IMG/VR virus record: IMGVR_UViG_3300042868_005339
DNA from: a virus
Reading direction: 5' to 3' (one strand)
DNA: 64,000 nucleotides
In this document: positions 5,835 through 52,400 of the stretch, one piece after another
Layout: each line of letters starts with the position of its first letter
How positions within the stretch are numbered: the stretch's first letter is position 1
Position numbers and translations under genes: made by a program
The notes under the pieces: generated by a model
Told to the model about the DNA's origin: nothing
What the model saw: the letters and a program-made list of their open reading frames with translations, nothing else
The model's database searches: none

Positions 5835-6088
5835 GGATATTTGTCTTCCTCAATCATACGGGCGTTGTGCTTGTGAAGGAATTTAGCCAGATCGCTGCTG
5901 AGTGTATCAACAACTTCTTCTGGCAGAATCCATTCCCACTCATGGAGGAATTCATGAATGAGAATGCGGAGATGATGCTGCCCGCATAAACGCTCGTCAA
6001 TCTCAATATTACCGTTGCCGTAAGCAAGACCTAAAGCCTTGTGACGGCCTAGCTTTCGCTTTTTAACGGTTATTGAAGTAACCTTCAC
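5831..6088 (-). CDS. Small HExxH (zincin-like) protein
   Basis: LRILIHEFLHEWEW contains HEFLH. The layout resembles minimal SprT/DUF45-type metallopeptidases. Confidence 0.45.
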   Translation of the reverse strand: MKVTSITVKKRKLGRHKALGLAYGNGNIEIDERLCGQHHLRILIHEFLHEWEWILPEEVVDTLSSDLAKFLHKHNARMIEEDKYP

Positions 6089-6453
6089 TGTTTTTGGCGG
6101 ATGCTATCAACCATTGCTATGGTGGCCCCACGAATATTGTTTTTGATTTGGTAGCTTGTTTTATTCGGGTTGCGAGCAAGAGAAGCCTTGATTCGATCTT
6201 CAAGTGAAGAATCAACATTGGTTTCATCCTTCTGCCGATAGCAACGAATGCGAGTTGTCATGCGACGTTTAGCGTCCCAAACTGGGAAGTCTTGCGCCTC
6301 AAATGCCCCTGATGAGACGCCACTTTTCAGCATGTCATGTACTCTTTCGGGAGAGCATTGAAGCTCTTCGGCAATATGCTCCTTGGTATCCCAACCATGG
6401 GGAATGCAATACTTTTCAGCGTTGATCTTGTCGATAGCCTTTTGCCATTTCAT
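6085..6453 (-). CDS. Hypothetical protein
   Basis: 122-aa ORF overlapping its neighbour by 4 nt. Confidence 0.55.
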   Translation of the reverse strand: MKWQKAIDKINAEKYCIPHGWDTKEHIAEELQCSPERVHDMLKSGVSSGAFEAQDFPVWDAKRRMTTRIRCYRQKDETNVDSSLEDRIKASLARNPNKTSYQIKNNIRGATIAMVDSIRQKQ

Positions 6454-6473
6454 TTGGTTTTGTGGTATGGTTG

Positions 6474-8459
6474 TTAATCAACAAAGATTGGGAACGTGAC
6501 CGTTCTTCCGTATCGCTTGTCAAAGATAAAGCCAGTCTGTGATGGTGGCTCGTAAGGTGCCTTGATGGCGATGGAGTAGGCATTGAAGCCAATTAAACTC
6601 CCGTTGCAAACCCACTTTGGATTTTGCTGACTTTGATGCCAGTGACCAAAGATGTCTAGGTCTGCTGGAACACCCTTGTTCCACGAAGAAATAGCCTTCT
6701 CAACTGGGATGGTCAACCCACCAACGCCACCTTGGTATTGTAAGCCGTCTCCGTGATGAATGCGAAGTGTCTTGCCGTATAGATCGAGAAGCAAATGGTA
6801 ACCATCAGAAACATGCCAAGAGGCTTTATTGCTAAGGTGCTTTGCCATCGTTTTGTAAAGCATCCACTCGTAGCTGTTAGCTGCGCCTGTAGCGTGACGT
6901 GGCTTGCGCGTCGTATTGCCACTGATAAACGGAATGCCGTTACGTCGTGTAATTAAAGCTCCGTTTTTTACAGTACCGCACCAAATCACGCCGCTATAAT
7001 ACTCTTGCTTGATGGATTCCGACCATTTGTTGATCTGATATGGGCTAGTATTAGAACGAACGCTCAATACACAATCCCCTCGATTATCAACACGGAGGCG
7101 AGATGAAATTCCATTCATCATCAATAATGCCTGAAGGCTTTCCAACGATGTTTTATCTTTATAAATTTGACCGCCTCCTGTTTTTTCTAAACTTCCATCA
7201 GCCTGAAATACAGTCTCAAGAAATACCTCAACCTGCCTTTGTGATAGATTGAACATCCAATCTGGAAGCTGGCCCTTTGATGGTAGCAGTTTCAACAAAT
7301 CTTGACTGTGATCTGGTGAAATTTGAAAACAAAATTCTCTCTTTGCCGTCAAGCATTGAACTCCTTTGATGATAGGCGGTGGACGATGGCGAGACACCTC
7401 CTTGTATGTCATATTTTCGCTTTTGAGAATCTTGCGTATCTCTTCAATTCCCTCCTCCTTACTTTGGTAAATACGGTAATAAGAATTACTGATTGTATTA
7501 ACGATGTGTCCATCTGTCCAAATCCAAGCTAAAATACGAAGCATATCATCAGATACGCTGTTCAAATCTTCTTTAGAACCAGTCGCTGTCTTTGGAAATC
7601 CTCTCCAAGCAAAACTACCAGATGGAACAGGCTTGAGGTCTTTCATTTCCTCAAAATGGCGCTTTCCAGTTTTGAGCGATTCAACAACCATCCTATGACC
7701 TGGAGTAACTTTAAAATCCATTGTGGCAGTTTTACCAACAAACATATATCCATCCCACAGATCTACATAAACATCATCAAGTGGTTGCCATTCTGCGGCA
7801 CCAGTTTCCATGTTGTATGTTGCAGCAATGTCTCCAACCTCAATTTCATTGTATTTCTTCCACCCACTTCTAGTCAGGAGTTCCGTTTCTGAATCATGAC
7901 ATCTGCCATGATTTCCATAGACACAGGGAATCACAATTTCTCCAAAGTGCTTGGACAGCAATTCAACTCCACTGGCGATCTGATCTTGAAGCCACAACAC
8001 TGTCTGAGTTGGAGACAAAGCGTTATTCTCCAACAGTTCCTCGTGGATGTAGCCAGTCATTAAATCGCCACCCAAGATCAGCACAAGGCGATCAATTTTA
8101 GCACCATGGCGTTGAATCTTCGCCATGCGAATAATCGAGTTCCAGAAACGGTTGATTCGCTGTTCAGCAATATCAAGATTGAACTCGTTTAGATTGTTGA
8201 TGGTTTTTCCTTCAACCGTCTCTTCGACATGCCAATCTGATGCGACGGCTACAAAAGTTGCTTCGGAGTCAAAATCACTGACCGCATTAATCTTGGAAGC
8301 AACAGGCTTCACGCCACCGATTCCAAGTGCGATATTAAGCTGATTGTCCTTTTCTGAAATGACGTTGAGCAGCTTTTTACGCTCACTCTCAAAGTCGGCC
8401 ACAGTCTTCTTGTGGCGAATCTCCTGGGTTTCATGAACAGCGGTGGACCAGTTTTTCAT
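6474..8459 (-). CDS. Calcineurin-like metallophosphoesterase interrupted by an intein
   Basis: Motifs DWH (aa 75-77), GGD (130-132) and GNHGR (182-186). After a 329-aa insert come IHHGDG and GHWH. Confidence 0.85.
   Translation of the reverse strand: MKNWSTAVHETQEIRHKKTVADFESERKKLLNVISEKDNQLNIALGIGGVKPVASKINAVSDFDSEATFVAVASDWHVEETVEGKTINNLNEFNLDIAEQRINRFWNSIIRMAKIQRHGAKIDRLVLILGGDLMTGYIHEELLENNALSPTQTVLWLQDQIASGVELLSKHFGEIVIPCVYGNHGRCHDSETELLTRSGWKKYNEIEVGDIAATYNMETGAAEWQPLDDVYVDLWDGYMFVGKTATMDFKVTPGHRMVVESLKTGKRHFEEMKDLKPVPSGSFAWRGFPKTATGSKEDLNSVSDDMLRILAWIWTDGHIVNTISNSYYRIYQSKEEGIEEIRKILKSENMTYKEVSRHRPPPIIKGVQCLTAKREFCFQISPDHSQDLLKLLPSKGQLPDWMFNLSQRQVEVFLETVFQADGSLEKTGGGQIYKDKTSLESLQALLMMNGISSRLRVDNRGDCVLSVRSNTSPYQINKWSESIKQEYYSGVIWCGTVKNGALITRRNGIPFISGNTTRKPRHATGAANSYEWMLYKTMAKHLSNKASWHVSDGYHLLLDLYGKTLRIHHGDGLQYQGGVGGLTIPVEKAISSWNKGVPADLDIFGHWHQSQQNPKWVCNGSLIGFNAYSIAIKAPYEPPSQTGFIFDKRYGRTVTFPIFVD
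6915..7901 (-). mobile_element. Intein with LAGLIDADG homing-endonuclease domain (aa 187-515 of the host ORF)
   Basis: Cys187 follows GNHGR directly. Block B is TPGHRMVV. LAGLIDADG-like motifs are LAWIWTDGHI and VFLETVFQADGSL. The C-terminal block is NGIPFISGN followed by Thr516. Confidence 0.8.
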
Positions 8460-8613
8460 ATCGCAAGGATAGGTGTTGATGGTTTACTTCTTCATTCCTT
8501 TGGGGATCTTCCCAAATGGGATTCCAAGGAAAGATAGTGTATCTTTGCCCTGTGTTTTGACGGCTTTCTTGACTGTTTTGGCTGGCTTTGTTGGTTTTTT
8601 CATTTGGTATATT

Positions 8614-8709
8614 TTATGGTTTTACTGAAACTATTAGCGCCCAGACTGATATGGATACCACTGCAAAACTGAATCCTATAAACTCATTAGCGGTTAAATA
8701 TAAACTCAT
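8614..8709 (-). CDS. 31-aa single-TM peptide
   Basis: MSLYLTANEFIGFSFAVVSISVWALIVSVKP. ATGA overlap with the lipoprotein gene stop. Confidence 0.3.
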   Translation of the reverse strand: MSLYLTANEFIGFSFAVVSISVWALIVSVKP

Positions 8710-8900
8710 GGTTGAATATTGCGAGGAGATTTTGCGCTGGTTCTGCCAAACTCAGCAGCAGCGGCGGAAATAGCTCCAGCTTGACCTCCAGTTAGATAAC
8801 CGACTCCTCCAGCCACAGCGATGCGCTTTACGTTGGATGAGTCTGCAATTGAGCAGGAAGACAGTGTTGAGACGACAAGGATAAGTGAGAGGTATTTCAT
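8706..8900 (-). CDS. Small lipoprotein with glycine-zipper core (spanin-like candidate)
   Basis: MKYLSLILVVSTLSSC carries the lipobox LSSC. The mature part contains IAVAGGVGYLTGGQAGAISAAAA. The ATG overlaps the amidase stop (ATGA). Confidence 0.6.
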   Translation of the reverse strand: MKYLSLILVVSTLSSCSIADSSNVKRIAVAGGVGYLTGGQAGAISAAAAEFGRTSAKSPRNIQP

Positions 8901-9376
8901 GGTGCGGCAACTTGAATAAGTAGTGGTGAAATGCCCAAGTTGGCAGGAGAAACTTCTGCTGAAGGAATGCGAAGAAGGAGGCGAGTTCCAGCATCCGCTA
9001 GCATTTTGTGAACTACCTCGGAGCAGAACCATTTTCCATTCTCTCGCGCTGGCTTTTTGGTGAGAAACCTTGCAACGCTCCAGTAGTCGTATGGCATGCC
9101 AAGCTGGCCCAAAAACAAGCTAATGGCATGATTGTAATCTTCATCGCTCATGCTTGGGATGGCAAACCAGTCGATCAGTCGGTTATCTGATTCGTCCAGA
9201 GTATGGAGCCGGACCCCTTTGAACTCTCGCGATTCAATAATGCGATTTGTGGTGCCAGGAATAAGCATCGCCGCATGTGAATACTTTGAGCGGGTCTGCT
9301 TTTTGATAAGCCAAGACACCACTCCATCACCATTGAATAGGGCAATGCGAGGCTTCATGTTTGGTTCTGTGATCAT
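8897..9376 (-). CDS. Permuted papain-like amidase (YiiX/YaeF C92-like), putative endolysin
   Basis: KYSHAAM, ESREFKGV, GMPYDYW and WFCSEVV are in the order typical of the permuted NlpC/P60 C92 family. Confidence 0.6.
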   Translation of the reverse strand: MITEPNMKPRIALFNGDGVVSWLIKKQTRSKYSHAAMLIPGTTNRIIESREFKGVRLHTLDESDNRLIDWFAIPSMSDEDYNHAISLFLGQLGMPYDYWSVARFLTKKPARENGKWFCSEVVHKMLADAGTRLLLRIPSAEVSPANLGISPLLIQVAAP

Positions 9377-34189: not shown

Positions 34190-34555
34190 ATGAAAAATAT
34201 CGACAGTCTTACTATCGGAGAGGCTAAACAAATCGCATCATTTTTTAATCAATCATGTCAGCAGGAACAATCCCACCCAATGCTTGGACGACGCTGCCTT
34301 GTTCGCACTTATTCGGCAGGTGTTCATATTGGCGATGTGGTAAGCGTCACTAATGGAACGGAAGTGCTACTTAAAAACGCATTGCGCCTATGGAAATGGG
34401 AGGGTGGCGGCCTTAGCTTGTCTGTAGTGGCAAATACCGGCATCAAAGGTGGTCGCTTAAACAAAACTAACGAGGTTTTACTCACCAACGCCATTGAATT
34501 TATTCCAACAACAACTGAGGCTGAAAAGTCCTATGAACGATTTATTGAGGAATAA
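34190..34555 (+). CDS. Hypothetical protein
   Basis: 121-aa ORF. Confidence 0.55.
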   Translation: MKNIDSLTIGEAKQIASFFNQSCQQEQSHPMLGRRCLVRTYSAGVHIGDVVSVTNGTEVLLKNALRLWKWEGGGLSLSVVANTGIKGGRLNKTNEVLLTNAIEFIPTTTEAEKSYERFIEE

Positions 34556-34745
34556 GCATCACGGTCACGCAGTTGGCTATGGCTCTGGCTCTGGCGATGG
34601 CTCTGGCGATGGCTCTGGCTCTGGCTATGGCGATGGCGATGGCGATGGCTCTGGCGATGGCTCTGGCGATGGCTCTGGCTCTGGCTATGGCGATGGCGAT
34701 GGCGATGGCTCTGGCGATGGCTCTGGCGATGGCTACTGTGAATAG
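34533..34745 (+). CDS. Gly-Ser/Gly-Asp/Gly-Tyr repeat protein
   Basis: MNDLLRNKHHGHAVGYGSGSGDGSGD(GSGSGYGDGDGDGSGDGSGD)x2GYCE. Confidence 0.45.
   Translation: MNDLLRNKHHGHAVGYGSGSGDGSGDGSGSGYGDGDGDGSGDGSGDGSGSGYGDGDGDGSGDGSGDGYCE
34575..34735 (+). repeat. Hexamer-based tandem repeat containing two perfect 60-nt units
   Basis: The array is built from GGCTCT/GGCGAT/GGCTAT hexamers. The units 34611..34670 and 34671..34730 are identical. Confidence 0.9.
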
Positions 34746-34984
34746 TCGGAATACAAATCATACCAAATAAAAAAAACTTTAGCAGTTCATCACAATAAAA
34801 TGCAGCGAGAAAGCGATGCCGGGAAGACTGCCTCCGTTTTACGGTGGAGATTGCAAGGCTAGTGAGTATCTAATAGATCGTCGATGGATAAGAAGCTGCA
34901 CTGCTAATTCAATTTTATCACCCACATACAAAACATGAGAAGTTTTTATGTTGACGGAATGATTAAAAACATCTCTATTAATAG

Positions 34985-35626
34985 ATGCCTAAAATTATAG
35001 ATAAGACAAAACAAAAATTTGGAAGACTTCAGCCTATTTCTCTTGCTTCGAGGCATAAAAATGGAAAGCCTAGATGGCTTTGTAAATGTGATTGCGGAAA
35101 TGAAGTAATCGTGACATCAGCAGACCTTGGAAGGAGTTCAAATTCTTGCGGATGTCTTAGAAAAGAAAAGACTTCTCAACGAAGAACAACTCACGGTTTG
35201 TCAAACACGCGAACTTATAATTGCTGGTGGGCAATCAGACTTCGTTGCGACTATCCAAGCAGTAGGCACTATTACCGATATGGAATGCGCGGGATAAAGG
35301 TTTGCGATGAATGGAAAAACAGCTTTCAATCATTTCTTGATGACATGGGAGAATGCCCATCAAACAAGCACTCAATAGATAGAATAGACAATTCAGGAAA
35401 TTACACCAAACAAAACTGCCGATGGGCAACGTCTAGAGAGCAAGCTCAAAACACCAGAACGAATAATAAAATAACTTGGAACGGAGAAACCAAATGCTTA
35501 ATCCAATGGGAGCGAGATTTGGGATTTCCATACAACTGTCTCCAGCAGCGTATAGTGAAGCGTAAATGGAGTATTGAAAAAGCATTCACAACACCACTAC
35601 TAAAATGCAAGAACACACCGAAATAG
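34985..35626 (+). CDS. Cys4-ribbon + degenerate HNH-like + C-terminal HTH protein (homing-endonuclease-like), copy P1
   Basis: WLCKCDCGN...SCGCL; HGLSNTRTYNCWWAIRLRC; YGMRGIKVCDEW; HSIDRIDNSGNYTKQNCRWATSREQAQN. Confidence 0.7.
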   Translation: MPKIIDKTKQKFGRLQPISLASRHKNGKPRWLCKCDCGNEVIVTSADLGRSSNSCGCLRKEKTSQRRTTHGLSNTRTYNCWWAIRLRCDYPSSRHYYRYGMRGIKVCDEWKNSFQSFLDDMGECPSNKHSIDRIDNSGNYTKQNCRWATSREQAQNTRTNNKITWNGETKCLIQWERDLGFPYNCLQQRIVKRKWSIEKAFTTPLLKCKNTPK

Positions 35627-36405
35627 AAATCCTGAAACCCGAAACTCTTTCCGCGATTGAGCAAATTTCTCGCGCTGAGATCGACTGCCAAATCAGCACT
35701 GCCAAGAAGTATCCGCGCTCTTTGTCATCGGTAAAAAAAGACATGCTGGCATTTGCCACGCTTGACCAAGAAACATCTGAGGGCTGCTTTTACAGCCTTC
35801 CTCGCGGTGGAAAAACAATCCAAGGGCCATCTGTTCGTTTGGCTGAAATCGCCGTCTCTTGTTATGGAAACCTTCGCGCTGGTGTTCGCATTATCAATAC
35901 TGTATCAACGGGTGACAATCCACATGTAGTGCTTCAAGCAGTGTGCCACGATCTCGAAAAAAACGTGGCGATTCAAGTAGAAAAGCGTCGTCGCATCGTT
36001 GGGAAGAAGTCCAAAGGTGGAGCAATTGATGAAGATGACATCAATCTTGCCGCTAATGCTGGTGCTGCTATCGCTTTCCGTGATGCGGTTTTTAAAGTGA
36101 TTCCTGGGGCTTTGATTAAACCTGTGTGCGATGAAGCAAAACGTGTTGCAATTGGTGATTCTAAGACCCTCTCGGAACGTCGCCAACGTGCCATCGACAG
36201 CTTTGGCAAGATGTCTGTCAGCAAGGACAAAATCCTAGCATTTCTTGGCAAGAAGTCGGTTGAAGACATCGACCTGACAGACCTTGAAACGATGTTTGGA
36301 CTTCATACAGCCATCAAGGACGGCCACACCACTGTTGACGAAGCATTCACGCCTAAAGCAGAAGTTGCCGATCTGAAACTTCCAAGCCAGAAGGAGTCCG
36401 CATGA
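35605..36405 (+). CDS. Putative single-strand annealing recombinase (RecT/Red-beta-like)
   Basis: CFYSLPRGGKTIQGPSVRLAEIAVSCYGNLR. It is translationally overlapped with the downstream exonuclease. Confidence 0.5.
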   Translation: MQEHTEIEILKPETLSAIEQISRAEIDCQISTAKKYPRSLSSVKKDMLAFATLDQETSEGCFYSLPRGGKTIQGPSVRLAEIAVSCYGNLRAGVRIINTVSTGDNPHVVLQAVCHDLEKNVAIQVEKRRRIVGKKSKGGAIDEDDINLAANAGAAIAFRDAVFKVIPGALIKPVCDEAKRVAIGDSKTLSERRQRAIDSFGKMSVSKDKILAFLGKKSVEDIDLTDLETMFGLHTAIKDGHTTVDEAFTPKAEVADLKLPSQKESA

Positions 36406-37199
36406 TCATCCTAGACGAACAAACATACCGATCTCATCCGGCTGCTAATTTCAGCAGCTTGAAGACGATCCTCAAGTCTCCAAAGCATTATCAATCGTCC
36501 CTCAAAAAGACGTTTGAGCCAACGATTGAGATGACTATTGGAACCATCGTCCACGAAGCCATTCTCGAAGGCAAACCATACAGCCATACCGTCAAGCCTG
36601 CTGACATTGATCTTCGGACCAAAGAAGGAAAGGCATGGCGCGATAAACACGCTGGCATGACCATCCTTTCTCTGGCTGAGCATGCAACAGTCGTCCGCAC
36701 GGTTGAAGCTGTGCGCAATAGTACTGATGCCCAATACTTGCTCAACCTGTGCAAGCAGCGCGAAGTAGGCATTGTGAACAATTACAAGGGCGTCGAGATC
36801 AAGGGCAGACTTGACGCATACGGCCAGGATGAGGGTGGTAAGCCGCTCATCGTGGATTTCAAGACGACGAGTGAAGCTGATCCTGAGCTATGGGGACGCA
36901 AGGCATTTGGCCTGCGATACATGATGCAGATGCAGTATTACAAGGCGCTACTGTCTCTGGAGCTTGGCCTCGATGTTGAGCCAGCGTATATCTGGCTTGT
37001 TGCTGAAACGAACGAGGCCGCAGACGTGTGCATTTATCAGCCGCCACCTGAGGCAATCGCCATCGGTCAGGCTCAAATGGACTATGCTGTCGAAACTTAT
37101 AAGAAGTGCCTTGAAACCGGACAGTGGCAAGGATACGGTAAAGGAATAATTCAATTAGAAGTACCTTTCTTTGAGAGAAAGAAATGGCTCAAACAATAA
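36402..37199 (+). CDS. PD-(D/E)XK exonuclease (RecB/Cas4-like)
   Basis: GRLDAY...LIVDFKTTS and QMQYYKALL (the D...D/ExK...QxxxY arrangement). Confidence 0.7.
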   Translation: MIILDEQTYRSHPAANFSSLKTILKSPKHYQSSLKKTFEPTIEMTIGTIVHEAILEGKPYSHTVKPADIDLRTKEGKAWRDKHAGMTILSLAEHATVVRTVEAVRNSTDAQYLLNLCKQREVGIVNNYKGVEIKGRLDAYGQDEGGKPLIVDFKTTSEADPELWGRKAFGLRYMMQMQYYKALLSLELGLDVEPAYIWLVAETNEAADVCIYQPPPEAIAIGQAQMDYAVETYKKCLETGQWQGYGKGIIQLEVPFFERKKWLKQ

Positions 37200-37234: not shown

Positions 37235-37981
37235 ATGCACAATGAACCATCAAGAATTCAGCAGCAAGGGTGGAAAATCGAAATCGAAAGCAAAAATGGA
37301 AGCCATGCGGAAAAATCTTGCAAAAGGCAGAGAAAAAATAGCCTTGCGAATAAAATCCAAGAAGGACAAATCTTCTCAATGCTTACCGCCATCGCAGAAA
37401 AAGGAAGGGATAAAAAGCAAAGCTTAATATGGTTATTTCAATGCGATTGTGGAAATAGTCTTATTGCAACTGTATCCAATGTGATAAGTAATAATACCAG
37501 ATCATGCGGTTGCTTGAGAATAGTTGGAAAAACTACTCATTCCGCGTGTGGAACACCTGAGCATAAAGCGTGGGGATCAATTAAAGATAGATGCTTTTGC
37601 AAAACGAACTGCAACTACAAATACTATGGCGCAAGAGGAATAACAATGTTTGAAGAGTGGCGATCTTCATTTCAGGCATTTTACCATTACATTGGGCCGA
37701 GGCCAAGCCCGTCTCACTCTATTGATCGTATTGATGTGAATGGCAACTATGAACCCGGCAATGTGAGATGGGCGACTGATCTTGATCAGGCAAACAATAG
37801 GAGAAACAACAAATTTATTGAGTTTAATGGAGCCACTTTGACATGCTCCCAATGGTCGGCTAAACTTGGATTTAAGAGACATACAATACATAACCGTCTA
37901 AGAGATGGTTGGAGCATTGAGAAAACTTTAACAACCCCACTAAAACAAACAATATGCCAACACCAATCATCATTAAACTAG
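37235..37981 (+). CDS. Homing-endonuclease-like family, copy P2
   Basis: EGQIFSMLTAI...WLFQCDCGN...SCGCL; YGARGITMFEEW; HSIDRIDVNGNYEPGNVRWATDLDQANN. Strongly AT-rich. The N-terminus is uncertain. Confidence 0.65.
   Translation: MHNEPSRIQQQGWKIEIESKNGSHAEKSCKRQRKNSLANKIQEGQIFSMLTAIAEKGRDKKQSLIWLFQCDCGNSLIATVSNVISNNTRSCGCLRIVGKTTHSACGTPEHKAWGSIKDRCFCKTNCNYKYYGARGITMFEEWRSSFQAFYHYIGPRPSPSHSIDRIDVNGNYEPGNVRWATDLDQANNRRNNKFIEFNGATLTCSQWSAKLGFKRHTIHNRLRDGWSIEKTLTTPLKQTICQHQSSLN
37242..37427 (+). CDS. Lys/Gly-rich basic ORF overlapping the P2 5' end in another frame
   Basis: MNHQEFSSKGGKSKSKAKMEAMRKNLAKGREK... Confidence 0.25.
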   Translation: MNHQEFSSKGGKSKSKAKMEAMRKNLAKGREKIALRIKSKKDKSSQCLPPSQKKEGIKSKA

Positions 37982-38931: not shown

Positions 38932-39122
38932 AACTTACTCTTAAACCAACAATCAATCCTCCTCGAGAAGGCATACCATCGCCAACGATCTCGATTGAGA
39001 TTCCAGACGATGACATGACATGCCGAGCCACCATTATGGACTTAGTGTTTCCGCTTCTTAATGCTGCATATCCAAGTAGTAACGTGCGTAATTACTTCAA
39101 TACAGACGAAATCGACCTATGA
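38928..39122 (+). CDS. Hypothetical protein
   Basis: 64-aa ORF. Confidence 0.5.
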   Translation: MKLTLKPTINPPREGIPSPTISIEIPDDDMTCRATIMDLVFPLLNAAYPSSNVRNYFNTDEIDL

Positions 39123-39259
39123 CTCCCAACAAAGAAAAGATCGCATTGTTTGACGATGCGATTGTCTATCACTCCTGCAAAGAAGAAATCAGCAAAGCTG
39201 AATCCGAATGGATTGAGTGGGCAAGGATTCGCGTGATGGAACTAGAAATGGAGGGATAA
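39119..39259 (+). CDS. 46-aa hypothetical protein
   Basis: MTPNKEKIALFDDAIVYHSC... ATGA overlap with the upstream gene. Confidence 0.4.
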   Translation: MTPNKEKIALFDDAIVYHSCKEEISKAESEWIEWARIRVMELEMEG

Positions 39260-39260
39260 T

Positions 39261-39608
39261 GTGGCTCTAAATTACCATGGAATCTTGCGACATTTCCCAA
39301 ATGCCAGTCCCGATCTGCTCGCTTACAATTCCAAGCAAGTTACCATCATGGAACGAGATTCTAGGGATGCACCATTGGGCAAGAAAAAAGTTCAAGGATC
39401 AACTAGCCAAAGAATTCTTGTCCGTGTTACGAGCGTCCGCAAACGACTTATCGACGAAGACAATTTGTGCGAAAAATATCATGTCGATTTATGCAGATAC
39501 GCTGGAATCATATCTGGCGATGAAGCAAGCAAAACAAAAATTGAGACAATCCAACGCAAGGCAGAAAAAGGCGAAGAAGAAAAAGTGATTATTGATATTT
39601 TCTCTTGA
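39261..39608 (+). CDS. RusA-like Holliday junction resolvase
   Basis: The C-terminal half carries RKRLIDEDNLCEKYHVDLCRYAGIISGDE (the RusA D-x-DN...K...D...DD pattern). The GTG start has GGAGGG 5 nt upstream. A RusA-type N-motif, LPSWNEILGMHHWARKK, lies in the +1 ORF 39277..39588. Confidence 0.55.
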   Translation: MALNYHGILRHFPNASPDLLAYNSKQVTIMERDSRDAPLGKKKVQGSTSQRILVRVTSVRKRLIDEDNLCEKYHVDLCRYAGIISGDEASKTKIETIQRKAEKGEEEKVIIDIFS

Positions 39609-39636
39609 AAAGCTAAACGCTTAGGTTATTATCATT

Positions 39637-39777
39637 ATGAATGAAAACAAAAATCCAAACGCAGTTGAACTTGGAAAAAAAGGCGGCAGCGCAAAAAGTA
39701 TGGCTAAGTCACAATCGTCTAAACTTAATGGCAAAAAGGGCGGAAGACCGAAAAAAAATGGTGGGAAATCAATTTGA
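39637..39777 (+). CDS. 46-aa Lys/Gly-rich basic ORF
   Basis: MNENKNPNAVELGKKGGSAKSMAKSQSSKLNGKKGGRPKKNGGKSI. It overlaps the P3 start. Confidence 0.3.
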   Translation: MNENKNPNAVELGKKGGSAKSMAKSQSSKLNGKKGGRPKKNGGKSI

Positions 39778-40402
39778 TAACCTTTTGGTTCTTGATCATC
39801 AATTTCAATATCTAAAAAACAAATGGTACTGCTTTTGTGCATGTAGTTGTGGAAACAAAAAATGGATAGGCATTGATGGGAAAAAGCTGAAGCAGAAAAG
39901 TTGCGGTTGCCTAAAAGGTAAAAATTCACCTGTAAAACACGGGCAATACAGAGGTGATACTGAATCAAAAACTCACATGGCTTGGAGATCTATGCTTAAC
40001 AGATGTTATGGATCAAAACCTCAACATGTGAATTATCGCAAACGTGGTATTCAAGTGTGTAACCGTTGGAGATTTGGTGAAAATGGAGAAAGTCCGTTTG
40101 ATCTGTTTTTTAAAGATGTTGGTCATCCTCCAGATTCATCTTACTCATTAGACAGAATCAATAATAATGGAAATTATGAGCCGTGCAACGTGAGATGGGC
40201 AACGGCAAAGCAACAAGCTGAGAATCGTTGTGACTCTAAATTTTTAACTTTAAATGGAGAGTCTAAACTGCTTACTCAATGGTGCCGTGAATTGAACTGG
40301 CCTTATTCTGTAATATGGAACAGAATCCAAAATGGATGGAGCGATGAAGAAATTTTAACAACACCAAAAGGTGTAAGAAGATGCCGGAGGACAATCAAAT
40401 AA
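39758..40402 (+). CDS. Homing-endonuclease-like family, copy P3
   Basis: VGNQFDNLLVL...WYCFCACSCGN...SCGCL; YRKRGIQVCNRW; YSLDRINNNGNYEPCNVRWATAKQQAEN. The track start 39641 is an alternative. Confidence 0.65.
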   Translation: MVGNQFDNLLVLDHQFQYLKNKWYCFCACSCGNKKWIGIDGKKLKQKSCGCLKGKNSPVKHGQYRGDTESKTHMAWRSMLNRCYGSKPQHVNYRKRGIQVCNRWRFGENGESPFDLFFKDVGHPPDSSYSLDRINNNGNYEPCNVRWATAKQQAENRCDSKFLTLNGESKLLTQWCRELNWPYSVIWNRIQNGWSDEEILTTPKGVRRCRRTIK

Positions 40403-40644
40403 TGCCCAACTCAAAACAACCATCCGCAGAATGCCGCCTTCACAATCAGTTGGCTCGCACACTTAATGGAACGAAGGCATCAAAAGATGAGACAACTCAA
40501 GTTCTCATCCACCTGTTAGCCATTCAGATCGCCAGCTACGACCCATTGATGCGCGATGCAGTTTGGGAATGTGCTGTCGATACACTGGACGACATGGTTG
40601 AGGACATCGCATCAGAGATCGACGCACACTTTATCAATAACTGA
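40402..40644 (+). CDS. Hypothetical protein
   Basis: MPNSKQPSAE... TAATG overlap with the P3 stop. Confidence 0.5.
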   Translation: MPNSKQPSAECRLHNQLARTLNGTKASKDETTQVLIHLLAIQIASYDPLMRDAVWECAVDTLDDMVEDIASEIDAHFINN

Positions 40645-44607: not shown

Positions 44608-45687
44608 ATGACCACCGAAGCCCCCGACATCTTTTCTAAACGGCTTCGTCAAGCGCGAGCGATGAAGGGTTTAGCCCTGAGAGGATTAGCAGATGCGATT
44701 GGCGGAGCGGTCTCTCACACTGCTCTTGCCAAATATGAAGCAGGTCAGATGCAGCCAGACTCCACTGTTTTGATCAAGCTCTGTGACGCACTGGATCAGG
44801 TGCCTGATTATTTCTTCCGCCCATTCACCATCACCCTCCAGGATGTTCGATTCAGGAAGAAGGCTTCACTTGGTGTGAAGGCTGAGCAGGCGGTTCGGGA
44901 GCGAGCCATGGAGTATTTTGAGCGCTACCATGAGATCGAACAAATTGTGGATGCCCCCAGCAAGTTCCCTGGCCGGTTATCAGGGCCTAGCATCAAGACT
45001 CCTGAAGCCGCTGAAAAGATGGCGGATGAACTGCGCAAGGAATGGAAGCTCGGACGAGATCCACTGCCGAATGTGATCGAGCTGATCGAGTCACATGGCA
45101 TCAAGGTGTTTGAACTAGCAAATGCTGACCAGGATTTTGACGGATTCTCTGCTGAGACTGAGGCTGGCCCTGTCATCGTGCTGGCTGACTGGCTGAATGT
45201 GAACCTGCTGAGGAAGCGCATGACTGCCGTTCATGAGCTGGCGCATCTTGTCTTGCCTCTCGCCAAGAACCTTTCCGAGAAGGAGGAGGAAGACATTGTG
45301 AAACGTTTCGCGGGTGCATTGCTCTTGCCCAAGGAGAGCTTTGAGCAGACTTTTGGAAAGCACCGGACCAGTTTGAGCCTGGGGGAGCTGATCGAGATGA
45401 AGGCTAATTTTGGTGCCTCCATCTGGGCCATCATGATGAGAGCACGACAGCTAGGACTCATCGGCGAACAGGTGTTCTTGCGCTTCTGCCGGGAGGCGAA
45501 TGCTTGGCGTGCTCAAAAACGTGAACCTGGTGATGACCTGTATCGTGGAAACGAGAGCCACTCCCGATTCAAACAACTGGTTCATCGTGCGGTCGCCGAG
45601 GAATGCATCAGCGCATCGAAAGCTTCAAGCTTGCTCGGGCAGACCATTGGTGAGTTCCGAAAAGAGTTCCGGGAGGTGTTTTCCTGA
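44608..45687 (+). CDS. XRE HTH fused to ImmA/IrrE (COG2856) zinc metallopeptidase
   Basis: N-terminal LRQARAMKGLALRGLADAIGGAVSHTALAKYEAG and central HExxH AVHELAHLVL. Confidence 0.8.
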   Translation: MTTEAPDIFSKRLRQARAMKGLALRGLADAIGGAVSHTALAKYEAGQMQPDSTVLIKLCDALDQVPDYFFRPFTITLQDVRFRKKASLGVKAEQAVRERAMEYFERYHEIEQIVDAPSKFPGRLSGPSIKTPEAAEKMADELRKEWKLGRDPLPNVIELIESHGIKVFELANADQDFDGFSAETEAGPVIVLADWLNVNLLRKRMTAVHELAHLVLPLAKNLSEKEEEDIVKRFAGALLLPKESFEQTFGKHRTSLSLGELIEMKANFGASIWAIMMRARQLGLIGEQVFLRFCREANAWRAQKREPGDDLYRGNESHSRFKQLVHRAVAEECISASKASSLLGQTIGEFRKEFREVFS

Positions 45688-46482: not shown

Positions 46483-49400
46483 TTAGCTTGCTGGTGTGTA
46501 GCCTCTATAGACCTTCTTTAGCACCCTGTCGCGCACGTCGTCAGCTTTGTCCAACAGGAATGCTTTGGCGCGTTCTGTGGGCATCTGGAGCGCACGCTGG
46601 CCGTAGCGTAGGAGCATCTGCTTGTAACCCTTTCCTGTTTCGAGGCTGTAGTTGTCAGCTTCTTCTTGCGTGAGGGAGCGACGACGAGCGCCTTTGCCAA
46701 CCATGCGGTGTTCGGCATTAGCAGGAGTCAGCCAGATTCCACGGGAAATGAGAGCGCCGAGAACCTTGTAAGCTGGATCAGTTGGTTTCACCATGAACTC
46801 GCGGCTTCCAGGATACACATTGCGTTGGATTTGCTGGCCCAAGATGTCGTAGTACTCCTTGCCTTCGTAGCGACGATAAACAGGAATGTGTGAGGCTGTC
46901 TTCTCCCACAGTGTTTCGTATTTACGCAGATTTGGATCTTGCGCGTAGTCGATGTCCTTCAGGAATCGAGGAACGAAACCGCCAGCGTAGCTCGACATCA
47001 CCTTGGCAAAACGCTCCATGCGCTTCTCGTTGGGGTCTTTACTGGACAAGCTGTTGCCGAATAGCTCTTGGAACTGAGAAAGAGCAGGAATATCAGCGGC
47101 AGCAGCAGCACCAGACATTGCGGCACTTGCCATAATTTGAACCACGTTTTTGTCGTTCCATTGGTCTGGTGAGAAGCGGATTAGATCAGCCAAGCTACCA
47201 ATAGCTGCAAGCGCAGATGAAATGGGCCAGTTAGCATAACTAAATACTGTGTCATTGTATCCAATGGTGTACTCCTTCTCGCCAGCGGCTAGCTTTTGCT
47301 GCTTCTTTTCCGGTGTAAGGTTTCCCCATCCTCCGTTGATAAACAAGCCGCCTCGTTTTTCGTCATCTGGTTCTTCTGCAATAGCTTTAAGTAAGTAGTA
47401 GCCACCAACGGATAGTATCACTCCAACAAGCTGATTGCGTTGAATTGAGTCAATGAATGCTTCTTTTCCAATGATGCGATCAGGATCAAATTCAGCCTCG
47501 AATGCACGAGCGAAACCAATGCCCGGAATGAAGCTCAGACCTTGGTTGAATTTGTTTCCAGCGAAGCGTGCGAAGCGAACACCACCAAAGTTGGCTACAT
47601 TATATGCAGAGAACTGCATAAGATAGGCGAATGCCAACTCAAGTCCAGAAAGAATCCTATCGCCATTCTGTGCTGAGTCACTCCATCCGCGTTGAGCTTG
47701 CTTTAGGAATCTATCAGAACCAGCTTCAGCATTGGTCACAAGCGATCTGATCGCACGATAGCCGACACCTCCAAGTCCAGACGGTTCAAGCGTCATGGCA
47801 CCTTGCATTGCCATTTGGTTAGCGTTCTCAGACACTTTGCCAAACTTATCCAATTCCTTCATCATGTCTGCCAAAGCGTAGGAATCCACGATTGCCTTAT
47901 CATGCAATGATTTTGGAGGTGTGCCACCGAAGTCTTTCTGAATAATGGCATCCTTGTAAGGCTTCAGGTCCGATTTCTTCTCAAGTGCTGCGATCTTTTC
48001 TGGATCGAGTCCAATTTGTCGGAATACGATGGAAAGCGAGCCTTCCTTGGTTAGTCCGCCATTGAACACGTCAAGAGCTTTCAGCAAACGGCTAACAGTC
48101 CGCATAAACAAGCCTGCGCTCTTAACGAGAATCTTATCAGACTTCGCCATTTGCTCTGCTAATTGGTTACTCTTGCCGATATTTGCCCACTGCATGTTCT
48201 CAGTCACATCATTCATGGATGGATCAAGAAACACTGGATCACCCGTCACAAGGTATTGCCAAGCGATGTTGGCTTGACGACCAAAAGCACTCAATAATCG
48301 AGCTAACGTCTTGTATGCGCCAGCAAGCTCAGATGGAAGCTGCTTTGGATTGGTAAATCCAGAGATGAACACGCGAGACAATGCCGTGGAAAGCTCGAAT
48401 GCACCGCTGGCAACAGCCAAGCCGATTGAGACGATAGTATTTGGACCAGAGAGCACACTGGAAACCCAGAAGTCAGCGATCATCTTTACCACTGGAATCT
48501 TGAGTTCGCCTTGCAACACCTCAAGTAGCTTGTAAGCAGCAACTTGGCGCTTCACAGCGTTCAAACCTTCGTCTTGAAGAACCTCGATAAGCGAATTTAT
48601 CTTCTCACGCTCCGTCTCGGTGAACTCGGACTTGATGCCAAATTTCTCAGCTATGATCTTCGCGATTTCATCGTTGTCGAAGATGCCAAGGTTGATGTCC
48701 TCAACGATACGCATGCGATTTTCCTGAAGAGCTTTAGCAGCTTTTTTGCTGAGATTACCCTTTGCCTCTTGCTCACGGATCAATCGCTCCTGCATGCTGT
48801 CGAGAATGCGTTTACGCTTGGATTCCCATGCTTCCGCGAACAAGTCTGCGAGACGTGCTTTTTGCTCTGGCGTTGCGTTCTTGAGTTCTTCGTTGGCAGA
48901 GATGGCGTCAAAGATACGCTGGCGGTATTCTTCGACTGTCTTTGCGCTTTGCGAGAGGAGCTGACGCCAAGGGATAGGCGTCCTAAGAGGAATTTCCTCG
49001 CCACGGCGCATGTTGTTGATCTCGTTGATCATTCGTTGCAGGGCTTTGGGGCCTTGCAGAATGTTGAATGCAGCCATTGCTTCGAGATCAGTCTTTTCGC
49101 GTTCAGCAGTCTTGAATAGGCGTTCAGCCACATCAGGTGAAACATCCAATTTAGCGAGGCGTTCAGCAAACTTTGATTTCTCAACTGGATCAGAAACTTG
49201 ATCCTTGAAAGCCTTGTTAATGGAGTCACCAGACGTTGATTTGGATAGGTCTTTGGAACCTTGGCGCAACCTTTCCTCAGTAGAGTAAATAAGTCTGGAT
49301 GCTTGTTTGTCGGCAATCTCAACTCGGCGCTTCTCGATTTTGAATTTCTTCATTCGAGCCAAGTCGGAACGCTCTCTGGATGCGGTTAGGAATAAGCGTT

Positions 49401-52400
49401 CAGAAACCTCTTCACCAACCTTGAGCGCGCCCAGTCGTTCTGCGAATTGCTCAAATGATACAGGGTTTTTAACCTGATCTCTAAATGCTCGAATGATGGA
49501 GTCTTTTTGCTCCTTTTTTGACATGCCTTCAGGTGGATTCTTGAATCCTTGGCGATACAATTCCTCAAAGCGATAAACAATTTGAGATGCCTTGTTTTCG
49601 GCAATCTCAATTTCGTTGGCGATCTCTTCTGCTGTTGGCTCAATAGGTTGACCTTCTGCAACACGTTTCTCCACCGTGTCGATGATCTCCTTGCGCTTCT
49701 TGCGTTTTTTCTTCTCTGTTGGCGTATCGGTTGGTGATTCCTCTCCAAGCAACTTGCCCATAATGGAGCGAAATTCAGCCAAGTCTTTTGCCTCTGCCGC
49801 ATCCGCTTCCTCATCCGACATTTGCAGAATGGCGTTAAGCTCGCTTCGCTCTGCATCTGTCATGGATGCCTTGGCATTTGCTACCTTCATATCCTTGCGA
49901 CGTTTGTAGAAAGCAAATCTACGAACCAGCATCTTTGCCCTTTCCCACAAGGTCTTATCTGCACCTTCAAATACCTGTTCACCTTCTTTGATTAATGCCC
50001 ACTCATTATTGTTGACGACATCCTGAGCTATCTCATCCACCGCCTGCTGATTGGCCTTATCAGAATTCTCATACGAGTTCTGCGTGAGGCTAGTCGCATT
50101 CTCGCTTCCGAAGTTGGAAATAAGGATATTTGTTCTTGCCTCCTTCATCACCTTCTCTGCGATTTCACGAATGAACATCCAGCTATAACGAGCTTTGTTC
50201 ACAAGATAGCGTCGTTGCCCAAGGTGTTGACCTTTCTTGCTACCCACGCCTTGCCAGAATGCAGATAGGCGCTCGCTAAGTTTGGATAGTTGCTTCTTTC
50301 TATCTGGAGACTTCGCCTCGCGTGCAGCGTTGTCCACACGTTGACGAACTTCGATAGTGAGGGCGTCTTGGGCCATCAAGTCTTGCTCAATGCCGATGCT
50401 TTCAAGGAATGCCGGGGAGATGACTGAGTTGGCAATATCATCAAGCGAAACGCCTTCATTCTCAAGGTTGTTGACGTATTTGATGGCATTATCGCTGTAT
50501 TCTTCAGAAGATTTGATCTCGCGGTCAATTGGCTTGAAGTTTGTGAACTGAACACCTCCAAACGGAGCCTTAGTTGTGCCACTGTTGATGTCCTTAATAT
50601 TCTTCGCGAACTGCTTGGTTGCAGCGTCTTCAGGATCAATCATAGATGCCCTTGCGCCAGTCTGCTGATAAGCCATCGCCAGCATCATTTCAGTCTCGTT
50701 GATACGATTCTTGAGAATATCGCCAAACTCGCCAGCCTTTGCAGGAGCGATGGCATCACGAATCTTTTGTAGCATTTTCATCACGCGCTCAATGAAGCGG
50801 CGGAATAGCGATGCTTCCGAAACTGTTTGGTGCATGTCTTGCTGAATCATCTGGCGCACAAACTCGGACATCACTATGCTGATGTTGCCATTTGGAGATG
50901 AAAATAGCTCATCAATGTCACTTGGAGTTGCGCCTGCACCGTAAAGTTGGCGAGATGCTTGAATCGCATCAAAAAGTATCCGTGTTGCTTTTACTGGATC
51001 ATTGCTTGATGCCACAACCTCCCTCATTTCGTCCAACATGGATTTATCGCTGTCGATGGCAAATTCAGTAAACGGCTTACGCCTTCCGCTGGCAATCCAT
51101 GCCTCACGTTGAACTGCAAGATCAGCCGCATGAATCAGTTCCTCTACCAAAGCATTGCCAATAGTTTCAAAAGCACTCGCCTCATCTAGGCCGAAGCTGA
51201 TTCCAGCCATCCGCTCACTAAGTTGTGCGGCATTGATGAGGATGGTTGTGGCCCCATTTTCATCCGCCATAACAGCCAGTCCACCTCCGATGTCGTTAGA
51301 AACTTCCTGAACTCTTGCTCCAATTCTGGACGCAATTTGAGCATAATCGGCAAAAGTGTAGCCACCACTTGCCATTCCCATGTCAGGTCTGGCCCCGGCT
51401 TTCCCTTCGCGATTTTCCCCTCTTCCTGCAATTGCCTCACGATTTCTAGAAACTTCTGATTCGACTCTTTGTGCTTGTGGTATGACTCCCTGTACTCCTT
51501 CTGGAAGGCCATCGAAGAGTGGTGTCCCGCTATCAGTCTGTCCAGCCCGGCCAACTCCAGAACCTTGTCGTAAACCTCCACCAAGTCCGGCCTTTTTGCC
51601 GGTGTAATTATCCATATTGGCTTCACCAGAGCGGTCCAATTGAATTGGTAAAGGGATTCGCCCTCCATTGGATATAAAATCCCTGAGTCGAGTAAGTACT
51701 GTATCATATAATTCTTGGTTGATTCCTCCAGATGGAGCCGGATTCGCAGCAGACATACCACGAAGCATGGAAATGACATCATCCTTAGTCATGTCGGTAG
51801 GCGGCATGATAATCGCAGAGCCAGCGCGTTCGCCTTCGGTGGTGAATGTAGCAAATGGAGACTCACCTTCAATCAACAGCGCCCCACTGTCCTCATACAG
51901 CCCTTGCAGGATGCGGCTGAACTCGGTTTCCGTCAGATCAGGCATCGACTGCTTCACGATGCTGAAAAGCTCGTCTAGCGGCACCGATGGACCATTTGTC
52001 TTCGGAGCAATATCGTATGCTGCGCGAATAGTAGAACGCACTTCCTTGTCGCGTTCGTCGTAGTCAGTGTTGCGAGCTACTTCAGCGCCACTGTTGAATG
52101 CGGCATCATTAGGGGAGTCGTATTCGACTTTGGATGCCATTGGCTGTGAGGCAGATTCCAACTCGTTCATTAGCGCGTTAACTTCGCTAATCTCGTCTTG
52201 TAAACGCTTGCCAACTTGGCCGTTTTTAGCCATTGTAAGAGCGGTTTTAAGAGCATTCGTAATATCAGTCAGCAATGCCTTCATCGCCTCAACAAAGCGC
52301 ATCCATCCAGTCTCGGTGGTGAAGTCTTGACGCTTAAATTGAAGTAACTGCCTGCCAACTTCCATAGCAAAAGCTGGTGCGTTTTTAGACTGTGCTAAAC

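Follow-up and report, generated by a model that had tools for sequence, protein, structure and literature searches.

What interrupts the third catalytic motif of a phage phosphoesterase gene, and would the interruption be removed from its protein? The question is raised by IMG/VR virus record IMGVR_UViG_3300042868_005339, a 64,000-nt stretch of DNA from an uncultured phage that we analysed whole (the window), in which an open reading frame (ORF) on the minus strand at 6474-8459 encodes 661 amino acids (aa; 74.7 kDa). An insert of 329 aa (precursor aa 187-515, window 6915-7901) opens at Cys187, right behind the phosphoesterase motif GNHGR (aa 182-186), and closes with ...NGIPFISGN at Asn515, after which Thr516 resumes the host sequence. 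Our results support the interpretation that the insert is a LAGLIDADG-type intein splitting motif III of a phage metallophosphoesterase, an identification well supported by independent lines of evidence. We consider it likely that the whole is a class 1 precursor, with a HINT splicing domain and a nested double-motif LAGLIDADG endonuclease.

An earlier note on this DNA had proposed the same ORF, insert, Cys187 start and Asn515|Thr516 end, and we reproduced its coordinates and lengths. The strings it named (DWH, GGD, GNHGR, HHGD, GHWH, TPGHRMVV, LAWIWTDGHI and VFLETVFQADGSL) are all present in the ORF. It had also expected excision to yield a 332-aa enzyme, and removal of the 329 aa leaves exactly that length, with the junction ...VYGNHGR-TTRKP.... 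The parts of the gene, with the intein and its domains as predicted, are as follows; intein residues are numbered from Cys1 (Cys187 of the precursor).

6474-8459, minus strand: precursor gene, comprising N-extein, intein, C-extein and stop codon (661-aa ORF)
7902-8459, minus strand: N-extein, aa 1-186, with motif I SDWH at 8229-8240, motif II LGGDL at 8061-8075 and motif III GNHGR at 7902-7916
6915-7901, minus strand: intein, precursor aa 187-515, 329 aa, 37.5 kDa, from the homologue gap, AlphaFold2/Foldseek and third-codon-position GC content (GC3)
7587-7901, minus strand: N-terminal lobe of the HINT splicing domain, boundary approximate, with blocks A and B
7860-7901, minus strand: block A, CHDSETELLTRSGW, with the Cys1 codon at 7899-7901
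7680-7715, minus strand: block B, FKVTPGHRMVVE, with Thr B:7, His B:10, Arg B:11 and Met B:12
7032-7586, minus strand: nested LAGLIDADG homing-endonuclease domain, boundaries approximate, from Pfam LAGLIDADG_3 and the Foldseek match to I-DmoI
7503-7541, minus strand: LAGLIDADG motif 1, LRILAWIWTDGHI, with Asp130
7188-7232, minus strand: LAGLIDADG motif 2, VEVFLETVFQADGSL, with Asp235
6915-7031, minus strand: C-terminal lobe of the HINT domain, boundary approximate, with blocks F and G
6936-6989, minus strand: block F, VIWCGTVKNGALITRRNG, with Cys308 (F:4) encoded at 6978-6980
6915-6923, minus strand: Ser327-Gly328-Asn329 of block G (IPFISGN), the C-terminal end of the intein
6477-6914, minus strand: C-extein, aa 516-661, with Thr+1 at 6912-6914, motif IV HHGD at 6747-6758 and motif V GHWH at 6636-6647
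6585-6608, minus strand: CNGSLIGF site in the C-extein, empty here and holding a second intein in some homologues

Homologues with and without the insert

Searching for homologues of the full ORF gave 200 proteins; the counts here refer to the best 120. Twenty-seven of them (P0001-P0027, 618-1083 aa if complete) carry an insert at the identical site, GNH[GA]R|CH...SGN|[TS], in exteins that are 34-98% identical. The other 93 (363-480 aa) pass from GNHGR, or in a few cases GNHSR, straight into the C-extein, mostly at TT, with no gap. Recurrence in 27 listed homologues and absence from 93 mean that the insert is not a chance pattern. When spliced in silico, the protein aligned to the intein-less homologue P0028 with an E value of 2e-132, gapless at the junction ...PCVYGNHGRTTRKPRHATGA..., and aligned in one piece to genes of the cyanophages S-CBS1 and KBS-S-2A and of many Bacteroides and Phocaeicola phages. 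A clean gap at GNHGR|T in intein-less homologues, which the earlier note had suggested looking for, is thus found both in the 93 listed homologues and in the P0028 alignment.

The exteins retain all five metallophosphoesterase motifs (DWH, aa 75-77; GGD, 130-132; GNH, 182-184; HHGD, 568-571; GHWH, 605-608), each of which is invariant in 36 intein-less homologues. A structural model of P0028 (predicted local distance difference test score, pLDDT, 83) matched the PolD DP1 3'-5' exonuclease, Mre11, LpxH and Vps29, and among viral models it matched phage 'DNA polymerase II small subunit' and metallophosphatase proteins. Because of the motifs and these two sets of structural matches, we place the host in the nuclease branch; it would be a phage calcineurin-like metallophosphoesterase with a PolD-DP1/Mre11-like fold. 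Searches of PHROG gave one contiguous match between the spliced extein and phrog_284 'exonuclease' (15-331 against 87-394 of 398, E 5.7e-42), and the same match was broken into two pieces for the unspliced ORF. Weaker matches linked the spliced extein to phrog_704 'DNA repair exonuclease' (E 0.009) and the unspliced ORF to phrog_1649 'metallo-phosphoesterase' (E 0.004). The spliced extein had no Pfam match, including Metallophos, at E<=0.01, and the full ORF matched LAGLIDADG_3 only.

Predicted fold and conserved residues of the intein

To model the intein, we used AlphaFold2 with 21 orthologous inserts and obtained a pLDDT of 93 and a predicted template modeling score of 0.90. Foldseek searches of the PDB with the whole model placed TliVMA (7qsu, E 4e-14), PI-PfuI (1dq3) and PI-SceI (1vde) at the top, with E values ranging to 1e-12. 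The central endonuclease domain was matched by I-DmoI (E 1e-6), and the best structural match to a mini-intein was AceL NrdHF (6zgq), with 25% identity and a root-mean-square deviation of 1.9 A over 103 columns. The insert is therefore predicted by the model to adopt the HINT fold. Pfam LAGLIDADG_3 matched ORF aa 412-461 with an E value of 3.7e-5 and 24.3 bits, against a curated cut-off of 22.5 bits. The earlier note had pinned its reading on hidden Markov model matches to an intein or to LAGLIDADG; the LAGLIDADG match was obtained, above the curated cut-off and backed by an endonuclease fold matching I-DmoI, and no HINT model of Pfam or NCBIfam gave one. A further profile, phrog_85 (thymidylate-synthase family), was matched by intein aa 1-101 (E 2.6e-7), and the matched part of that profile is probably itself an intein.

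Ten residues are invariant in the 21 orthologous inteins (C1, T66, H69, R70, M71, W307, C308, S327, G328 and N329). The alignment further shows C1-H2-D3 in block A, T66-P-x-H69-R70-M71 in block B, and W307-C308-G-T-V and T-R-R-N-G in block F to be invariant. Block B contains TxxH, as T66-P-G-H69. At the C-terminal end, Asn515 precedes the Thr516 nucleophile of the C-extein, and Thr at +1 is a standard nucleophile. Gly514 occupies the position of the consensus penultimate His (G:6). The two LAGLIDADG motifs, LAWIWTD130G and VFQAD235G, each end in an acidic residue; among the orthologues, D130 never varies and D235 is retained in 90% or more.

The intein belongs to a very large family

We searched for relatives exhaustively with a profile of the intein and recovered 17,222 cluster representatives at E<=1e-3, of which 1,897 reach E<=1e-30; this indicates a family of at least 17,000 sequence clusters. 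A word-indexed homologue search with the same profile gave only 14 proteins, so the exhaustive search was needed to reveal the family. By tblastn against phage genomes, the intein matched 389 records, 383 of them over at least 80% of its length and with about 27% identity in the top rows. Hosts included mycobacteriophage metallophosphoesterases (Turj99 gp50, E 5e-18, and many cluster-mates), DNA methyltransferases (Bobi gp73, whose methylase intein matched at E 4e-22) and Gordonia phage portal proteins, and there were also matches in Rheinheimera, Escherichia, Pseudomonas and Prevotella phages.

Residues and insertion sites were counted in 154 full-length copies from 133 proteins, drawn from the best profile-search matches. 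Cys1, the candidate nucleophile at A:1, is invariant in these 154 relatives as in the 27 orthologues. B:7 is Thr in 149, B:10 is His in all 154, and B:11 is Arg in 112 and Lys in 18 (Arg/Lys 130). F:3 is Trp in 117 or Tyr in 32, and F:4 is Cys in 146 or Asp in 6. At the C-terminal end, G:6 is Gly in 152 and G:7 Asn in 151, followed at +1 by Ser (76), Cys (49) or Thr (29). The acidic LAGLIDADG positions are likewise kept, the first as D/E in 153/154 and the second as D in 146/154. The intein here carries the family signature (C1, H69-R70, W307-C308 and G328-N329). As for sites, 63 relatives are inserted after GNH[DE], 12 after GNHGR and about 14 after GNH, DNH or NHS; about 58% of these nearest relatives lie in phosphoesterase motif III, in three registers (GNH|, GNH[DE]| and GNHGR|). 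By these comparisons, the intein is a new member of a known, very large and partly characterised family, at its commonest type of insertion site.

Two expectations of the earlier note do not survive this comparison. It had called the penultimate Gly non-canonical, and Gly turns out to be the family rule. It had also considered a phosphoesterase an unusual host, and besides the prevalence of motif III sites, inteins adjoining a conserved motif in mycobacteriophage metallophosphoesterases were published in 2016 (PMC5050341), with phosphoesterase listed among known actinobacteriophage intein hosts in a 2025 survey (bioRxiv 10.1101/2025.01.02.630785). Inteins lacking the penultimate His are able to splice (PMC4031507, PMC5050341, PMC7891396), and in two tested relatives Gly outperforms His at that position (PMC5050341, PMC7891396).

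Related inteins also split other phage enzymes at catalytic residues (P0122, P0124-P0129). A papain-like peptidase carries one just before its apparent active-site Cys (EGT|C...ISGN|CVGF), and others lie in Amidase_2 endolysins and in phosphoesterase motif V (HGH|C...TGN|CH). Two full-length copies occur together in 21/133 sampled proteins, and metagenomic proteins of 1800-3300 aa (P0139, P0141, P0145, P0154, P0239 and others) with 5-9 stretches matching the intein profile appear to be multi-intein proteins.

Base composition and signs of mobility

The insert has a GC content of 40.7%, compared with 45.5% in the N-extein, 48.3% in the C-extein and 47.7% in the whole window, which places it at the 2.2nd percentile among 987-nt windows across the whole stretch. 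GC3 falls to 34.7% in the insert, from 50.0% and 51.4% in the two exteins. The earlier note had put the contrast at about 42% in the insert against about 52% in the exteins; the contrast is real, by GC3 and by percentile, but the figure of about 52%, the note's one inaccurate number, was wrong.

Intein and extein have also diverged separately. The extein of P0004 is 91% identical to the one here and its intein only 45%, and P0026 and P0027 have the opposite pattern (exteins 33%, inteins 58% identical); over 325 pairs, the correlation between intein and extein divergence is only 0.42. Divergence this loosely coupled reads as a sign of mobility, as does the retention of both acidic LAGLIDADG residues. 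Copying of the intein into the gene by endonuclease cutting and repair would explain both its foreign base composition and a phylogeny uncoupled from that of its host gene. Among the homologues listed, no intein-free allele exceeded 60% extein identity, and because none closer than about 60% was found, the intein seems to have become fixed in this lineage.

The homologues P0004, P0026 and P0027 have, at ...NG|SLIG... near the C-terminus, a second intein of the canonical kind (Cys1 ... His-Asn|Ser; 339, 172 and 344 aa). One 90%-identity cluster holds both 994-aa alleles with two inteins and 655-aa alleles with one, which looks like a live presence/absence polymorphism of this second element.

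Comparison with characterised inteins

The best whole-model Foldseek matches, PI-SceI (1VDE), PI-PfuI (1DQ3) and TliVMA (7QSU), resemble the intein here in having a HINT domain interrupted by a LAGLIDADG endonuclease, as well as Cys1, TxxH and an Asn at the C-terminal end, with template modeling (TM) scores of about 0.6 yet only 10-15% sequence identity. These classical inteins have Asp at F:4 and a penultimate His, are hosted by V-ATPase or ribonucleotide reductase and, in the case of PI-SceI, carry an extra DNA-recognition region.

Much closer in setting is the intein of Bethlehem gp51, a recombination directionality factor (RDF) and calcineurin-like metallophosphoesterase; the 317-aa intein, with Gly316 in the penultimate position, splices completely in E. 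coli, and its G316H mutant is slow, taking >5 h to reach 50% completion (PMC5050341). On the basis of the 317-aa length and Gly316, we take the intein of Turj99 gp50 to be its orthologue. Turj99 gp50 reads ...HEGNHD|CSWTN...ITANHRVVG...EVWCLRVPNGRFFIEDGGKIHLTGN|SRARD, and its intein aligns over the full length with the one here (27% identity, E 5e-18). The Bethlehem and Turj99 inteins and ours are phage inteins with a nested LAGLIDADG endonuclease, placed at phosphoesterase motif III (GNH...), with Cys1, a TxxHR block B, Trp-Cys at F:3-F:4, a [TS]-Gly-Asn end and Ser/Thr at +1, and the size is close (317 against 329 aa). Unlike them, which come from actinobacteriophages, our intein comes from an uncultured phage, has Met instead of Val at B:12 and Ser instead of Thr at G:5, and is inserted one residue further on (GNHGR|T as against GNHD|S). 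The host phosphoesterases belong to very distant families, with no BLAST similarity between the spliced exteins here and those of Turj99 gp50, so the shared insertion motif does not stem from close homology of the host genes.

Of the solved splicing domains, that of AceL NrdHF (PDB 6ZGQ; Hoffmann et al. 2020), an atypical split class 3 intein with a splicing half-time of about 4 min (PMC7891396), comes closest in sequence as well as in structure. It starts with Ala1, has His68-Arg69-Met70, carries Cys124 at F:4, lacks His at both F:13 and G:6, and ends in Thr144-Gly145-Asn146|Ser; C124A and G145H are dead and R69A is slowed, and Arg69 hydrogen-bonds the C-terminal scissile carbonyl, compensating for the missing penultimate His (PMC7891396). 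It shares with our intein an identical His-Arg-Met at B:10-12, Cys at F:4, the lack of F:13 and G:6 His, a hydroxyl residue before the Gly-Asn end and Ser/Thr at +1, and it is probably of phage origin, as ours is. The C-terminal layout is also common to AceL NrdHF (...EFHCLSVPGKSFVVTDEHGNRSVTGN|S) and Turj99 gp50 (...EVWCLRVPNGRFFIEDGGKIHLTGN|S). In contrast to the intein here, which has Cys1 and is contiguous with an in-frame LAGLIDADG domain, AceL NrdHF has Ala1 and proven initiation by Cys F:4, and occurs naturally as two halves that flank a free-standing GIY-YIG endonuclease gene; its host is a ribonucleotide reductase subunit, and B:7 is Ser there and Thr here.

Proposed splicing path and alternative explanations

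We propose that a mobile intein has inserted two residues past the His of motif III (GNH-GR|T) in a phage metallophosphoesterase, and we infer from its residues the following path, which would use no cofactor. Cys1 (C187) would undergo an N-to-S acyl shift at Arg186-Cys187, assisted by Thr66 and His69 of the block B TPGH. Thr+1 (T516) would attack the thioester to give a branched ester, and cyclisation of Asn329 (N515) would release the intein. The family has neither a penultimate His nor an F:13 His; the basic B:11 residue (Arg70, Arg256 of the precursor) probably polarises the C-terminal scissile carbonyl in place of His. Cys308 (F:4, Cys494), which replaces the usual Asp, is taken as an assisting residue. 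An O-to-N shift would then produce ...VYGNHGR-TTRKP... and an active 332-aa enzyme. With computed masses of 37.46 kDa for the free intein and 37.29 kDa for the ligated exteins, the two would co-migrate. For homing, the endonuclease would cut intein-less alleles at the motif III site, with the predicted target GTCTATGGAAATCATGGCAGA^ACGACGCGCAAGCCACGTCAC, and repair would copy the intein in.

Several results weigh against this interpretation. None of the Pfam HINT and intein models (PF14890, PF13403, PF07591; E<=1) matched the splicing domain, and NCBIfam gave just weak partial matches to intein-bearing ribonucleotide reductase, RtcB, DnaB and PolII models. PDB sequence searches with the intein and with a hand-made mini-intein returned no significant match, the best being 6zgq (profile E 0.06). 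None of the canonical residues F:4 Asp, F:13 His and G:6 His is present. The distance to the nearest intein-free allele makes recent homing in this lineage only a possibility. Lastly, the closest solved splicing domain, AceL NrdHF, is proven class 3 and initiates via its F:4 Cys (PMC7891396), which makes the assisting role given to Cys308 tentative. As regards the profiles, the missed HINT match reflects the models, not the sequence. NCBI, JGI and Logan assemblies contain the exact 661-aa protein under the label 'hypothetical protein', probably because curated HINT profiles miss the splicing domain.

The last of these points bears on the class of the intein. If the same element used a class 3 or dual mechanism, Cys308 would attack the scissile bond at the N-terminal junction, giving a branched thioester in block F, and Cys1 would be dispensable, redundant or a redox partner through a Cys1-Cys308 disulfide. 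We regard this as unlikely, although AceL NrdHF, the best PDB sequence match and best splicing-domain structural match, shares the HRM / C-x-[ST]-V / [TS]GN signature with our intein. Cys308 aligns with AceL NrdHF Cys124, F:4 Cys is retained in 146/154 relatives, and the modelled F:4 thiol lies 3.0 A from the N-scissile carbonyl in the AceL NrdHF crystal structure (PMC7891396). Nearly all class 3 inteins have Thr/Ser at +1, as here, and Tori et al. flagged WCT inteins starting with Ser1 or Cys1 as possible class 3 (PMC2807308). G:5 could be read either way: it is Ser327, a conservative replacement of the class 3 Thr, and a WCS triplet occurs in 3/1702 class 3 inteins and an MCT triplet in 1/1702 (PMC7891396). 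On the other side, Hoffmann et al. define class 3 by Cys at F:4 together with a position 1 other than Cys (PMC7891396), and Cys1 is present in 154/154 relatives and all 27 orthologues. F:4 is Asp in 6 relatives, which is incompatible with a mandatory nucleophile at that position. Block B has the class 1 TxxH, and B:12 is Met71 rather than the class 3 Trp; AceL NrdHF also has Met there (PMC7891396). The related gp51 intein was treated as class 1 by Kelley et al. (PMC5050341). Class 1 splicing is thus most likely, because Cys1 does not vary among the sampled copies, whereas F:4 may be either Cys or Asp, the canonical class 1 residue, and because block B carries TxxH and Cys is the second most frequent F:4 residue across inteins generally (PMC4031507).

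The remaining alternatives concern whether the insert is excised at all. A decayed intein, leaving the phosphoesterase gene dead or making only a 75-kDa fusion, would account for the missing assisting residues (F:4 Asp, F:13 His, G:6 His) and the lack of a HINT profile match, and decay does occur in the family, since about 55 aa are gone from the endonuclease domain of orthologue P0012. We nevertheless find it very improbable: the ORF and all five host motifs are intact, the residues that define the active family are kept across orthologues only 34-98% identical in their exteins, and relatives missing the same residues splice fast (PMC5050341, PMC7891396). It is harder still to credit that the 329 aa form an integral, non-excised accessory domain or a bacterial-intein-like (BIL) domain that only cleaves. 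The insert splits the metal-binding motif III, and its composition and phylogeny are uncoupled from those of the host. BIL domains are not known to have a +1 nucleophile, but every copy here has Cys, Ser or Thr at that position, and we ruled this candidate out; the integral-domain reading was ruled out by the 93 listed homologues that lack the insert and show neither gap nor replacement sequence. A free-standing endonuclease ORF or a group I intron was ruled out by the continuous reading frame and by HINT lobes on either side of the endonuclease.

What is really new in the finding is confined to the class 3 or dual pathway. A broader and doubtful proposal is that the family has two candidate initiators, Cys1 and Cys F:4, such that either may start splicing or a disulfide between them makes it redox-conditional, and that AceL NrdHF arose by loss of Cys1. 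Class 3 inteins are viewed in the literature as monophyletic and defined by the WCT triplet, and if either cysteine could serve, this would imply a second, independent origin of class 3 splicing. Such a family would also be a ready-made system for studying the interconversion of splicing mechanisms and would supply protein engineering with fast, His-independent inteins. As a single copy, the class 1 intein that we favour adds little to intein biology, but the family-level numbers may be useful. The locus also illustrates that a phage nuclease-type phosphoesterase can go unrecognised, with a misleading length and with the gene and its close relatives filed as 'hypothetical protein'. Inteins of this family are probably under-annotated systematically, because their splicing domain escapes the Pfam HINT profiles and draws only weak partial matches from NCBIfam.

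Genome surroundings

Megablast of window 6000-9000 against 50,697 phage records gave no match, which places the phage outside the GenBank phage collections; PHROG and Pfam searches of ten large neighbouring ORFs returned no structural-gene names, a search for transfer RNAs found none, and there were no long direct repeats indicating a concatemer. The neighbouring genes named by PHROG and Pfam include a CHAP endolysin, Peptidase_C92, a primase/helicase, a RecE-like exonuclease and three HNH endonucleases. We assign the window to a phage because of the endolysin, primase/helicase, RecE-like exonuclease and HNH genes and the phage distribution of the homologues.

The three HNH genes are free-standing paralogues on the plus strand (34985-35626, 37235-37981 and 39641-40402; phrog_374/3377, E<=1e-41), scattered through a replication/recombination module and adjoining the RecE-like exonuclease (36402-37199). 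The lowest-GC stretch of the window (37.7-39%, at about 39050-40600) surrounds the third. These genes suggest that the phage has several more homing elements. Immediately upstream of the first of them, at 34550-34763, the sequence (GGC-TCT / GGC-GAT / GGC-TAT)n forms a degenerate array of hexanucleotides at intervals of 12 or 18 nt; its in-frame translation would give a Gly-Ser/Asp/Tyr repeat. A plus-strand ORF at 44608-45687 encodes a helix-turn-helix (HTH) and IrrE/Peptidase_M78 protein, an antirepressor/ImmA-like pair fused in one ORF, which hints at a temperate or regulated lifestyle. A giant minus-strand ORF at 46483-57081 (3532 aa) has no PHROG match, and the Peptidase_C92 gene, at 8897-9376 on the minus strand, encodes a permuted papain-like amidase.

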